64,000 bases of DNA, from contig NC_081391.1 in the NCBI RefSeq assembly GCF_030684315.1, forward strand, positions 13,679,342 to 13,743,341, written 5' to 3'. Numbering within the stretch: the stretch's first letter is position 1; the number at the start of each line of letters is the position of its first letter. The notes below the pieces were generated by a model. That model saw only the letters and a program-made list of their open reading frames with translations, had not been told where the DNA came from and did no database searches. Of the stretch, positions 2,851-63,892 are shown in pieces. The stretch comes from Stegostoma tigrinum (lineage: Eukaryota). The translations under genes and the position numbers were made by a program.

Positions 2851-5800
2851 ATGGCCTCCCAGATCAGTCAGAACTATCACCAGGATTGTGAAGCTGCTGT
2901 CAACAAGCAGATCAATGTGGAGCTCACTGCCTCCTATCTCTATCAGTCTTTGGTGAGTGGTGTCTCTGTTGGGTGAAACATACTTCTGTTCTGTTGAAGT
3001 AACCTCTTCCCCTTGGATGTAATTAAGTTGTCTATCTTCTAGACTGAGTTTTGTGGCTCCTACCTCTTTCTCAATGCAGGATGAGTGTGATGTTACTGTA
3101 ACAATAGTTTGGTGTCTAATGTTACTCTAACTTGGGTCCCAGTTGGTTGTCAGTGAGATGTGGAGGGTGGAGTGTTCTTGTAGTTACTTGCCTGTCCCAT
3201 GATGGTGCTGTGACTGGTGGTAATTATCGCTTCCTGTGACTGTTTGTTTGAAACTTGAGGGAACAAAATTAAAAATGAATTGGGACTCACCATTGTGGGA
3301 ACGGAAGCACCATCGGCTAGTCACTGCTCTTCTTTTCCTCCTTGTATCCTTGCTTGTATTTGAATTTTGTGGTGATCCCAACTTAACATCTCAAATAATC
3401 TTGATTTCCTATTGCAATCAGCTTAGAATAGGCTTGTTCTAGCCCTGCAGAGCTGGGCTGAGAAGTGGCAAATGGAGTTTAATGCAGACAAGTGTGAGGT
3501 GATGCACTTTGGTAGGAGTAACCAGCAGGCAAAGCACGAGGCTAATGGTAAGATTCTTAGTAATGTAGATGAGGAGAGAGATCTCGGTGTCCACGTAAAC
3601 AGGTCCTTGAAAGTTGCCATCCAGGTTGACAGGGCGGTTAAGAAGGCAGTGTTTTCTCTTTGATTAATAGAGGCATTGAGTTCTGGAACCAAGAGGTTAT
3701 GGTGAAGCTGTACCAAACTCTGGTGTGGCTGCACTTGTAGTATTGTATACAGTTCTGGTCACTGCATTATAAGGATGTGGAAGCTTTGGCAAGAGTGCAG
3801 AGGAGGTTTACTAGGATGTTGCCTGGTATCGAGGGAAGCTCTTATGAGGAAAGACTGAGGGACTTGAGGCTGTCTTCATTGGTGAGAAGGTTGAGAGTTG
3901 ACTTAATTGAAACATATAATATTCTGAGGGTTGGAAAGGGAAATCCTCTTTCTGCGGACGGTGAGCATGAGGGGGCATAGCTGTAAATTGAGGGATGATA
4001 GATATAGGACAGATGTCTGAGGTAGTTTCTTTACTCAGTAGTAAGGGAATGGAATGCTTTGCCTGTGACGGTAGTAGATTTGCCAACTTTAGGTACATTT
4101 AAGTCGTCATTGGACAAGCATATGGACGTACAGGGAATAGTCTAGGTTAGATGGGCTTGAGATCAGTATGACAAGTTGACACAACATCTAGGGCCTGTAC
4201 TGTGCTGTTATGTTCTAGTTTCAGATTAAACTGGGTGAGGTTGTGACTGGTATCTGATCAAGCAGATCTCCATTTGAGATCTACTTTGCTTTTTTTCATA
4301 CTCATGAGGTGGGTGTGGGCTGTCTGTATATCAGTGTTGGAGCTTTTCCAAGGCATGGCACTGCCGTGGGGCTGAGAATGTGCGGAGGGTACTGACCCAG
4401 TGAATATGGAAAAAATAGCTTATTCCTGTTGTATTTGGCCTGACTCTAAACTAACTAGCCCCTCTTTCCCCAGGTGGTTGGGTGCCTGTGCCCTTCCAAG
4501 GGGTAGAATGTGTTTAGAAGGTGTTAGAAGTAACCTTAGTGAGTGTTGCCGGGTGCTCTCTGGGCTTGTGCTTGTCAGCAGGAAGTCCTCTCATGATGAG
4601 GATCAAGTCCCTGTCAGCCCCACTTTGGGAGGTGGCAACAGCTTTCATTGAGCCAGCAGTTCAGTTTTAATCGCTGACCCATGTTCCTAACACAACTTGG
4701 AAGCATGTCCCAAGAGTAAAATCTCCACTATTCTACATCTTCTAACTGCCCATTTAAATGGGCAATGATAAATTGTGCTTGTGTTTGCATTTGACAATTA
4801 AAGCAACTTTTTTCAGCAGGATTCCCAAGAATGTGTGTCTTAGTAGCTGCTTCCAATAGCAGACCTGGTAAACCTGAATACATTGAATTGTGAACATCCT
4901 GGTTTAGAAATCTACAGGACTTTGCCTGTTGGATTAAGTCAACAGTAGCATTTCCACGTTACTGTTTTAATAAGTGATGTTGTCTAGAGAGTAGGTGATC
5001 TGCAGGTCACTGTCATATTTGTCATGTGATCAGTTTGTTTTGTCAATCAGTGTTTCATGTGTAATGGTACAAGTTGCTAGCAGTCTCAGTACAGCTGTTT
5101 TAGATGCAGCAGTAAACTGTATCTAGAACAATCCAAAGACTGTCCCGAGGCAGGCTTTCCTTGGCAGATTCTTGGTGCCCATGTCCTTCATTCATCCCTT
5201 CCCCCTCACCCCAGCCACCCCACTACTGCAGCCCTTGTCAAACTAATAGATACAGTGCATCCAATTGCATTGATCCTGACTAAGCAGAAAATGTGCTCCT
5301 TCCTAGCTGTTAGTTGCAGTGTCTGGGATCTGTTTTCTGGCCTTTGCCAAAGGAGCAATAGCGTGCCCTGCAGCTGTTCTATTGGTGCACATCCTGCATT
5401 CCAGCTTCTGGCATTTCTTGAAACCCTATTCAATCAGTAATTTATCCCATTTCTGGTGGAGGTTAATCAGTAAAAACATCAATTCACACTTGTTCTCACC
5501 CAATGCTGTGCCAGACCCACTGAGCAATTTGCCAGGAGTTTCAAACCAAAATAAAACACATGGTGTTTACAGCTTACCTGGAGGAAGCTGGGATTGTTTT
5601 GATTTTTCCAATTCAACAGGAACTGCTCAAAACTGGGTTCTGAATTGTTAATGCATCAGGTACTTAACAGCTTATTGTCAGTCTGATTTTTAGAATGCTC
5701 AAGTAGCCCTGGAGCTCTGAACTAAAATTGGCCCGTGACTTGTTAATGGGCTTTACCTTGATCTCCCTTCCAGATGTCCTACTTTGACCGGGATGATGTT

Positions 5801-8037
5801 GCCCTCCCCCATGTCTCCCGCTTCTTCAAACATCAGTCCCAGGAGAAGCGGGAACATGCAGAGAAGCTGCTGAACTTCCAGAATCAGCGTGGAGGCCGGG
5901 TCCTCCTCCAGGATGTGAAGGTTGGAGTTGGGTGGGGTGGGGGTTGGGATGGTAATGGCTGCTCTTGTGGTGTGGTTTCAAGTCAGTGACAAGGTTTTCA
6001 TTTGAGTCAAAACTTTGTTCGGCCTGTTTGATCTCCTTTTTGAAGCCAGTGTAGAAAGAAGCCCTTTGGCCCACCATGTCTTTGCTGACCCCACAAACAC
6101 TAAAGCACATTAATCCCATTTACCTTCCCTTGGTCCACAGGCCACTGTCCTGGCACTATATACTTGTCCAGCTGGACCTTAAACTGATCTGGAGTAGCTG
6201 ACTCCACCACCATCCAACCCTTTATGTGGTTCATCTCATATTTCTAACCTCCCCCTCGGAGGAGGGTGAAGAGAACGTTTCCTCCAATCCCCTCTAACCT
6301 GCTTACTCCACAAACCTGGTTTCTCTCTGGTCTTGCTGTCTGCTATGGGGAAGACATTCCATCAACTGGCCACTCTCTATTCTTCAATAGTTACATCAGG
6401 TCACTCCCTCAGCCGTTCCTGCTCCACAGAAAATCCCAGCCGATCTAACCTCCAATCAATGGATCTTGGGCAACAGCCTGGGCAACCTCACCAGCTTCCC
6501 CCTGCAGTGCCATCCTGTCCTTGTGACTGGTGAGGCCCAAGAGGGAATAATGTGGTGACTAGAAGAACAAACTGTGACAAGACTGGCCCCCTTCCTGTTC
6601 CACCACACCCAACTAATAGAGGTTGCTTGCCCTCTGTCACTGTTACACCCTGTTGACCTTGTCTGAACTTTGAGGGATCTATGGTTGTGGGCCTTTCTTC
6701 ACTGTTAGCAGCACAACACACTTTGCAAACACCTCGCTGTCCCTTGGATGAATTAAATAGCCGTGATGTTTCTGATCATCCTGCTCAGGCATGTATGAAG
6801 CCACCAGCACAAGTGGTACTTGAACCTTGGCCTTGTCAGCCAGAGACAGGGGCACTACCACTGTACCATGACAGCATTTAGGATTCACTTGTGAATATCC
6901 TCGCAATTCCATCAGATGGACCCTGATGCAAATCTTGTCATTATCCCCCACAATGACCTGTTATTCAACTTCCTCCTTCAGATCAAGGACCGACAGGCAA
7001 GGTGAAAGCAATTCTGAAGGAACTGTGCTCCAGGGCTGCCTCAGGGGCTAGCAGTGTTCTCAGTGCTAGGGACACAGGTCTGGATCTGGCCTCTGGTGAG
7101 GGACTGGTGTTTACATGTCCTCCCCATGTCTGCATTGGTGTCCTCATAGGATAAGGGGATTGGCCATCTGAAATGCAGGGTTACAGGAATAGGGTGGGAG
7201 AATGACGAGTTGGGATCCTCTTCAGAGCAGTTACAGACTGATCCACGTTGTAAAGATTCTGAAGCTTAACTGTCCAACTTTCCTTCCTCCAGAAGCCAGA
7301 GAGGGATGAGTGGGGTAACAGCCTGCAGGCAATGCAGGTTGCCCTGGATCTGGAGAAGAATGTGAACCAGAGTTTGTTGGATCTACACCAAGTCGCCACA
7401 GCCCAGACTGACCCTCATGTAAGCTTCACCTCCTCATTGACTTCACTGCTAGGCCCTCAGGGCAACACGTTCATTGGTTGGTCTTTTGTGGATTAGAAAT
7501 TCAGTTAGACTTTGTTTTTGTGCAGATGACATGGATCACTTCAGATCCATAGTGATTACAAAATCATTGCTGAGCAGTTGAGTCCAAGTGTGTATTTTAA
7601 CTTGTAAACCTGTGGGGAGGACTGAGGGGATATTGGTCACTGAATTCTCATTCAGGACCACTGCAGTGGAATGACTTTTATCCGTCACAAGTTAACTCTG
7701 CTCCAGTAAATAAACAGCAAGATGAAACTGCTAAAAAGCAGTTGTCCTCTTTGCACAATTTCTCCAGGCGTTGGCTCGAGACATCCCTGACCATCTCCCT
7801 CCATATGCATGTTTTTAGTGGGAATTCTGAAGTTGTCTTGGATAGTGTTAATGTACCAAGTGTCATATTCCTCTGTTGCAGCTGTGTGACTTCCTGGAGA
7901 CCCACTATTTGGATGAGGAGGTGAGGATCATCAAGCAACTCGGGGACTACATCACCAACCTGAAGCGCCTGGGAGCCCCTGAGAATGGGATGGGAGAGTA
8001 CCTGTTTGACAGGCTCTCCCTGGAGGACAGCAGTTAG
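2851..8037 (+). CDS. Ferritin subunit (heavy/middle-chain-like with L-type residues), copy 1 (type A), intact; exons 2851-2952, 5774-5920, 7293-7418, 7882-8037; 176 aa
   Basis: Spliced translation [180 protein letters not shown] introns lie at the conserved vertebrate ferritin positions; TATA box at 2757 and AATAAA at 8165. Confidence 0.93.
3445..4218 (+). mobile_element. 5'-truncated CR1 LINE (HER1-like) in intron 1 of copy 1
   Basis: CR1 ORF2 C-terminal motifs ([31 protein letters not shown]); 3' tail gggcctgtactgtgctgttatgttcta. Confidence 0.9.
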
Positions 8038-8164
8038 TGTGGCCTGGAGTACTGTCTGCTTGGTCTGAATGCATTCCCCACTTCACCCTGGCCAATCTGT
8101 CTCCTTCCAGGGAGAAGGGGCTTGTAGCAACGAACGTAATGGCTGTACCAGCCGAATGGAAATG

Positions 8165-8170
8165 AATAAA
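8165..8170 (+). terminator. Polyadenylation signal of copy 1 (equivalents at 26565, 34724, 42858, 51455, 60275)
   Basis: AATAAA about 128 nt after the stop codon, at the same position in all complete copies except copy 2. Confidence 0.75.
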
Positions 8171-63517: not shown

Positions 63518-63705
63518 AGGTCAAAGATCATTCAGCAATTCCATCATCGACCAGTTGTCAACCGTGATTCGTTTCTGGATCCAGTTCCCATCCTGCACTG
63601 ATTGGACGTGGCAACTGATCAATTGATTAACAAGAGTGATTGGCCATCACTGATGATGTCATTTCCTGCTTCATAAAAAGAGGGGCTGCCCCTGGAGTAT
63701 AAATA
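63518..63705 (+). promoter_or_regulatory. Ferritin proximal promoter, copy 8
   Basis: DR1 variant AGGTCAAAGATCA, two ATTGG boxes, TATAAATA at 63698-63705. Confidence 0.6.
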
Positions 63706-63790
63706 GAGTCCCACGGGAATGATGTTGATTGTTCTTCCTAATTTTGTTATTTTGGTGGTGAGGAGAATAAAAGAAATTTATTGTCACAAG

Positions 63791-63892
63791 ATGGCCTCCC
63801 AGATCAGTCAGAACTATCACCAGGATTGTGAAGCTGCTGTCAACAAGCAGATTAATGTGGAGCTCACTGCCTCCTATCTCTATCAGTCTTTG
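63791..63892 (+). CDS. Ferritin copy 8 (type B''), exon 1 only; gene continues beyond the window
   Basis: [34 protein letters not shown] followed by a GTGAGT donor; TATAAATA at 63698-63705. Confidence 0.85.

Follow-up and report, generated by a model that had tools for sequence, protein, structure and literature searches.

What does a row of ferritin genes on a shark chromosome encode, and why are there so many of them? The question is raised by a stretch of 64,000 nucleotides from Stegostoma tigrinum (NCBI RefSeq assembly GCF_030684315.1, contig NC_081391.1, positions 13,679,342 to 13,743,341 of the forward strand), here called the window, which carries eight ferritin genes. We propose that the window is probably part of a shark ferritin mega-cluster with an amplified, iron-independent subfamily that resembles the light (L) chain, is marked by lysine at position 62 of the human heavy (H) chain (Lys62), and serves bulk iron storage, probably in eggs. 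Residues are numbered below on the 176-amino-acid (aa) product, whose positions 24, 57, 59, 62, 104, and 138 correspond to 27, 60, 62, 65, 107, and 141 in human H.

A preliminary description of this DNA, made from its letters alone, had listed eight co-oriented, intron-containing genes. Exon mapping bore this out: all eight lie on the + strand, with start codons at 2851, 12491, 21870, 29593, 38577 (inverted), 47182, 54985, and 63791, and seven of them have all four exons within the window. The exons of these seven complete copies measure 102, 147, 126, and 156 bp, and the arrangement of four exons and three introns is that of vertebrate ferritin genes (PMC4117605). Self-comparison, which had been proposed as a check, revealed long co-oriented paralogous blocks at offsets of ~8-9, 17, and 25-27 kb. 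Since paralogous matches within the window account for 89% of its length, the repetition is far beyond chance; Tandem Repeats Finder reported nothing beyond short local repeats in the window. Frames of 176 codons are open in copies 1, 4, and 7 (3/7 complete copies), and the lesions of copies 2, 3, 5, and 6 (4/7) differ from one another. The intact complete genes are thus all of one body type (A), and each complete non-A copy is broken in its own way, as had been noticed before. The copies are as follows:

2851..8037, + strand: copy 1 (body type A), whose 176-aa frame is open; the four exons span 2851-2952, 5774-5920, 7293-7418, and 7882-8037
12491..16647, + strand: copy 2 (body type B), with a stop as codon 68 (14449-14451) and an altered polyadenylation hexamer
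21870..26437, + strand: copy 3 (a body type of its own), with 2 bp lost from exon 2 and a degraded TATA box
29593..34597, + strand: copy 4, whose type A body follows a different spacer; frame open, with His62Gln and AAG as the exon 2 acceptor
38577..42730, + strand: copy 5 (body type B), start codon removed by a 29-bp micro-inversion (38576-38604)
47182..51327, + strand: copy 6, with a body of its own that is unlike copy 3; exon 2 holds a 6-bp insertion with an in-frame stop, exon 3 another stop, and exon 4 lacks 2 bp
54985..60146, + strand: copy 7 (type A through intron 2), open frame, with a non-A tract at ~59300-60800
63791..63892, + strand: copy 8, exon 1 only, with a B-type upstream region; the window end cuts the gene

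The protein of copy 7 is identical to an annotated S. tigrinum protein (P0010). The encoded product has the Pfam Ferritin domain (PF00210, E 6.7e-36), and its predicted model (predicted local distance difference test score, 88) consists of helices 11-39, 46-72, 93-120, 124-154, and 161-172, that is, a four-helix bundle and a short fifth helix. The best match in both sequence and structure is the middle (M) chain of fish and amphibians (frog M, ~70% identity, template modeling score 0.94). However, the M chain keeps the full ferroxidase set, which comprises Glu24, Glu58, Glu59, His62, Glu104, and Gln138 (PMC4117605), whereas the array genes lack Glu59 and Gln138. All seven copies bearing the respective exons have Lys59 and Glu138 instead (Glu62Lys and Gln141Glu in human H numbering), and the H/M-chain set is therefore incomplete. 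In a 70-row alignment, both changes occur in 10/10 tetrapod L rows and in 0/41 rows outside L and the shark Lys clade. In L chains, a bridge between Lys62 and Glu107 substitutes for the iron site (PMC11396501, PMC13012636). The array copies retain Glu104 (= Glu107) and thus combine Lys62, Glu107, and Glu141 in the manner of the tetrapod L chain (FTL; the "light chain, oocyte isoform" of amphibians and reptiles), with which they also share four exons and 62-68% protein identity. They differ from it in that Glu27 and His65 are mostly kept, Gln occupies position 60, no IRE (iron-responsive element) was found, and the copies are many and in tandem. The loss of Glu27 and His65 is not universal among tetrapod L chains either: the Xenopus L row keeps both. 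From these residues we infer that the product is a catalytically impaired, L-like subunit. Among other paralogs, the full-length S. tigrinum proteins P0121 and P0124 have an additional Glu58Gln at the iron site.

The Lys59 type extends well beyond the window. Shark ferritins form three clades in the tree: one is conserved and of low copy number, and two are expanded, the first of these having an intact site and the second Lys59. The support for the Lys59 clade is 100/98 (100/99 without five trait columns), and its members come from Heptranchias, Heterodontus, Scyliorhinus, Mustelus, Cetorhinus, Carcharodon, and carpet sharks, representing five shark orders. Lys59 is present in 19/19 rows of this clade and Glu138 in 9/19, solely the carpet-shark rows. 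Of 35 S. tigrinum ferritins retrieved, 22 have Lys59, nine have Glu59, and four are unscorable, and both kinds are listed on one 26.87-Mb contig; the expectation that the array would continue past the window is thus supported. Several database entries seem to be contaminated or mislabeled: P0034, P0178, and P0222 are shark-type ferritins filed under Aeromonas veronii and Salmonella Typhimurium, and P0335 is a reptile-like L chain filed under giant panda.

The regulation of the array genes may also depart from that of typical ferritins. An IRE in the 5' untranslated region (UTR), a feature of H, M, and L chain genes, was not detected: Rfam gave no IRE match in the window at gathering or at E<=10, its seven weak matches lying well below their cut-offs and none being an IRE, and an IRE sequence pattern had no match on the + strand (no positive control; transcription start placed from the TATA box). 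What all copies do share is a promoter:

2636..2762, + strand: conserved promoter block (~-215 to -110 from the start codon of copy 1) together with the TATA box, repeated before all copies

Any pairing of the eight copies shows 0-13 differences in this block, and the TATA box is located 93-105 bases ahead of the start codon (~-94 at copy 1). The block contains repeated words that we take to resemble CCAAT, E-box, and cyclic AMP-response element (CRE) motifs, and it may carry tissue-specific control.

Evidence of transcripts came from contigs of public sequencing runs, although none of the runs listed for this sequence is registered as RNA. At each of the three introns, run X3 has GT..AG joints (the one at 55085-57897 appears in 15 contigs); we therefore take X3 as RNA and conclude that the ferritin family is transcribed and spliced, although the joints are not assignable to individual copies because exons are shared among them. 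Exon-skipping joints also occur in X3, from exon 1 to 4 (38677-42574) and from exon 2 to 4 (40575-42573), and skipping keeps the frame since all introns fall between codons; the database models P0019, P0021, and P0033 lack exon 3. One X3 contig is spliced from within a copy-6-type intron 1 to exon 2 (47963-49113), possibly reflecting a cryptic exon or an alternative start. Many shark models (P0002, P0004, P0007, and P0008) have exons 2-3 repeated and are 261-291 aa long; these are probably chimeric annotations across neighbors, read-through splicing being the other option. P0003, which has a copy-6-like leader, was considered as an intact copy-6-type gene and rejected as a chimeric gene model. 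The numbers of contig records (37,088 in X3 and 477 in X6) are not expression levels and were not used as evidence.

The history of the array can be read from its introns and spacers, which are marked by three insertions of long interspersed nuclear elements (LINEs), presumably CR1-like:

3445..4221, + strand: 5'-truncated LINE within the first intron of copy 1, with identical junctions at 30193-30975 and 55577-56354
10581..12032, + strand: LINE fragment upstream of copy 2, with a broken reverse-transcriptase frame (RVT_1 in Pfam); recurs at 36662-38121 and ~61860-63334
19395..20801, - strand: LINE fragment upstream of copy 3; the insertion recurs before copy 6 (44930-46003)

The junctions are identical within each of the groups 1/4/7, 2/5/8, and 3/6, which agrees with the grouping drawn previously from these elements. 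The gene bodies fit that grouping in part. Copies 2 and 5 are 96-98% alike throughout. Copies 1, 4, and 7 are 91-99% alike in introns 1 and 2, which supports a type A, but this type is not uniform, since two of its members are mosaic: copy 4 is type A only from ~29400, the spacer before that point being a different one, and copy 7 contains the non-A tract listed above. Copies 3 and 6 are 92-100% alike only in the upstream spacer and promoter (to ~47000) and in exon 1, and their introns are alignable over just 6-32% of their length; a single "type C" gene, as had been proposed, is not borne out, the bodies behind the shared upstream DNA being unrelated. Along the window, the bodies run A, B, D, A, B, E, A*, B, and the repeating block is A-B-spacer, present three times, with a variable third gene. 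Thus, what survives of the proposed A-B-C unit is the recurrence of A-B plus the next spacer every 25-27 kb, while its third position differs between copies 3 and 6. Trees of upstream DNA, intron 2, intron 3, and exons are mutually discordant, and the switch points between bodies and spacers lie within the promoter block, which is conserved, and immediately ahead of exon 3. Because these are conserved islands, the pattern is that expected of unequal recombination between islands. Within copy 3, the shortened intron 2 contains a 100-bp piece (25547-25647) that is 79% like a ferritin 3' UTR with a poly(A) signal, and ~1.8 kb of intron 1 (23289-25128) has no paralog in the window, possibly being another repeat insertion; three frames from this tract matched no Pfam family.

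The exons have followed a different course from the introns. In 6/6 A-B pairs, differences occupy 3-7 of the 60-67 four-fold sites (5-10%), whereas introns 2 and 3 differ by 28-31% (Fisher p 1.5e-06 to 7.2e-04 in all six pairs); in the four within-type pairs, the two rates are indistinguishable. Between types, synonymous divergence is therefore 3-6 times below intron divergence, which indicates gene conversion of exons. Exon 1 shows zero differences among copies 2, 3, 4, and the unmasked part of copy 5, and the 3' UTR, like the promoter block, is far more alike across body types than the introns are. These observations fit exon-limited gene conversion superimposed on copy gain and loss. The birth-and-death evolution previously suggested for the array is accordingly upheld as regards pseudogenes among intact copies, and not as regards independent divergence. 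The open copies show a ratio of nonsynonymous to synonymous differences (pN/pS) of 0.11-0.16, i.e., purifying selection, and most pairs with copy 3 or 6 show 0.33-1.0. Departures from the majority protein number four amino acids in each B copy and likewise in copy 1, seven in copy 4 (including His62Gln), and 12 in copy 3.

Taken together, we envisage that the window is a slice of the putative shark ferritin mega-cluster, namely, the part holding the Lys62 subfamily. Its turnover would proceed by unequal crossing-over that starts in conserved islands, gene conversion would hold the exons alike, and individual copies would die at random. The product would be a stable, catalytically impaired L-like subunit, in which a Lys59-Glu104 bridge replaces the iron site. 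We infer that it forms mixed assemblies with the catalytically intact subfamily, which is also amplified on this chromosome. The large number of copies, together with the lack of an IRE, would lead to a large output in one tissue, most likely the ovary, whatever the level of free iron, and eggs would thus be stocked with safely stored iron. Ovaries of vertebrates are rich in ferritin mRNA (PMC1488847). Several points weigh against this proposal. With Glu24 and His62 mostly retained, the subunit may still be partly active, and the nucleation cluster seems incomplete, given that positions 54, 57, 58, and 61 are His/Asp, Gln, Glu, and Glu in the array copies, with position 57 being Glu in 8/10 L rows. 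Selection on codons or mRNA could partly explain the low synonymous divergence (GC 0.67-0.72 at four-fold sites versus 0.48 in introns), and the breakage of four of seven complete copies indicates weak selection on any single one. In addition, the ovary expression discussed below comes from another species, in which the two subfamilies were not separated.

The resemblance to tetrapod L could mean that the Lys62 clade is its true ortholog, in which case the impaired subunit predates the split of sharks and bony vertebrates and carpet sharks gained Gln141Glu in parallel. This is possible, yet we are inclined to doubt it. With all columns, the Lys clade and tetrapod L form one branch (92/73), every row of both groups has Lys59, and an approximately unbiased (AU) test that kept the two together gave p-AU 0.446, neither placement being rejected (34 of 70 rows, quick tree, LG+G4). 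Removal of the five trait columns, however, leaves the joint branch in 34% of 200 bootstrap trees, and the Lys clade then pairs with the other shark subfamily in the best tree (59/76); the long-branched Hemitrygon row was left out of this tree and of the AU test. Moreover, Glu59Lys requires one base change and recurs in Heptranchias P0050, P0233, and P0236 of the other subfamily, and no ray or chimaera member of the clade was found among the best 120 matches listed. Position 59 has been lost again, to Lys, Gln, or His, in these Heptranchias paralogs and in turtle paralogs (P0329 and P0331), and thus this site decays repeatedly in duplicated ferritins. We judge convergence to be somewhat more probable than orthology. 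The broadest form of the orthology argument, in which sharks hold a tetrapod-L ortholog, the split into catalytic and non-catalytic chains dates to the jawed-vertebrate ancestor, both subfamilies were amplified without IREs and with exon conversion for egg iron, and carpet sharks repeated Gln141Glu, is unlikely and is put forward as a tentative idea.

Other explanations concern the array rather than its ancestry. A largely neutral expansion, with copy number drifting in a cluster prone to recombination and with Lys62 copies being relaxed passengers that are in part dispensable, as opposed to a dosage adaptation, would account for the broken copies, the recombinant copies and micro-inversions, and the high pN/pS of pairs with copy 3 or 6. 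We consider it improbable, since Lys59 is retained throughout a clade of five orders, the open copies are under purifying selection, the promoter block is conserved over all body types, spliced transcripts are present, and the expansion goes back 250 million years or more according to a preprint (10.1101/2024.09.09.611499). Little more can be said for a fixed A-B-C unit under birth-and-death with selection mainly on type A, as the preliminary description had it. The three open frames are all type A, against 0/4 of the others, but the resulting p = 0.029 presumes independent copies, which these are not; the A-B-spacer blocks and group-specific LINE markers agree with such a unit, whereas the unrelated bodies of copies 3 and 6, the mosaic copies 4 and 7, and exons that ignore intron types do not. 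Type B was also intact until recently, because copies 2 and 5, with introns 98% alike, share no lesion: the B lesions are private and younger than the 2% intron split, which weakens the case for selection on type A. Intronic contigs in X3, together with the copy-6-type intron 1 joint, hint at non-A transcription.

It is also hardly likely that some lesions, chiefly the micro-inversions of copy 5, are assembly errors or private alleles. The relevant segments are as follows:

42238-42270: second micro-inversion of copy 5, 33 bp, in intron 3
51469..52785: spacer DNA separating copies 6 and 7, for the most part single-copy within the window

In favor of this reading, one copy holds two inversions (29 and 33 bp), four other block comparisons having shown no micro-inversion besides one 12-bp match, and the intron 3 site is non-inverted in the sole contig of X1 and in that of X2. 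This does not show that the inverted form is absent, because contigs drop rare variants. Both inversions end in short inverted repeats, the pattern left by template-switch mutations, and the matter concerns one copy and not the array. Duplication of haplotypes during assembly was ruled out for the units as a whole, because the blocks are 86-98% alike (2-14% different) with different lesions and because the copy 6-7 spacer is present in contigs of other runs: a single contig each in X1 and X2, which belong to one study, has three differing letters, and the part 51469-52130 is covered in X3, from a second study, with one differing letter. Summed contig depths (in X1, 1831 at the exon 4 site versus 97 at this spacer) are not copy numbers and were not used.

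The array itself is not new, a giant shark ferritin cluster having already been described in the preprint cited above. It reports 155 FTL and 179 FTH1 copies in the Greenland shark, with a largest cluster of 222 that is expressed specifically in the ovary, and a ferritin cluster conserved with the white shark (10.1101/2024.09.09.611499). Together with the 14 fthl27 copies, mostly in tandem, of the hadal snailfish (PMC10746142), these numbers weaken the earlier view of the array as atypical. The Greenland shark mega-cluster resembles the present array, by description, in being a very large, ancient, clustered expansion of two labeled kinds. It differs in that more than 85% of its copies are reported as full length, whereas 4/7 are broken in the window. 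The accessible text of the preprint gives copy counts by gene-symbol annotation and ovary expression, and does not deal with active-site residues, IREs, unit structure, or gene conversion. The snailfish expansion is likewise a tandem ferritin amplification in a fish and was interpreted as a matter of dosage, but its copies are described as recent, expressed in most tissues, and tied to oxidative stress; the shark array is older and larger, and its active-site residues are altered. Our literature search, which covered mainly openly available papers and the main text of the preprint, turned up only this preprint and no account of the Lys62 shark subfamily, the absence of IREs, or the conversion pattern; PMC10620051 does not mention ferritin. 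A second Greenland shark genome paper reportedly mentions ferritin expansion as well.

The names given to these shark proteins by NCBI, "middle subunit-like" or "heavy subunit-like", conceal the active-site difference. The L chain is usually regarded as belonging to tetrapods, its counterpart in fish being the catalytic M chain (PMC4117605). A shark-wide subfamily with the two active-site changes of the L chain would represent either a clean example of convergence or an older origin of L. What makes the array interesting is not the cluster, a known kind, but an L-like, IRE-free subfamily probably kept uniform by conversion, which offers a working model for the shark mega-cluster: two kinds of subunits, no IRE, and exons held uniform through conversion.

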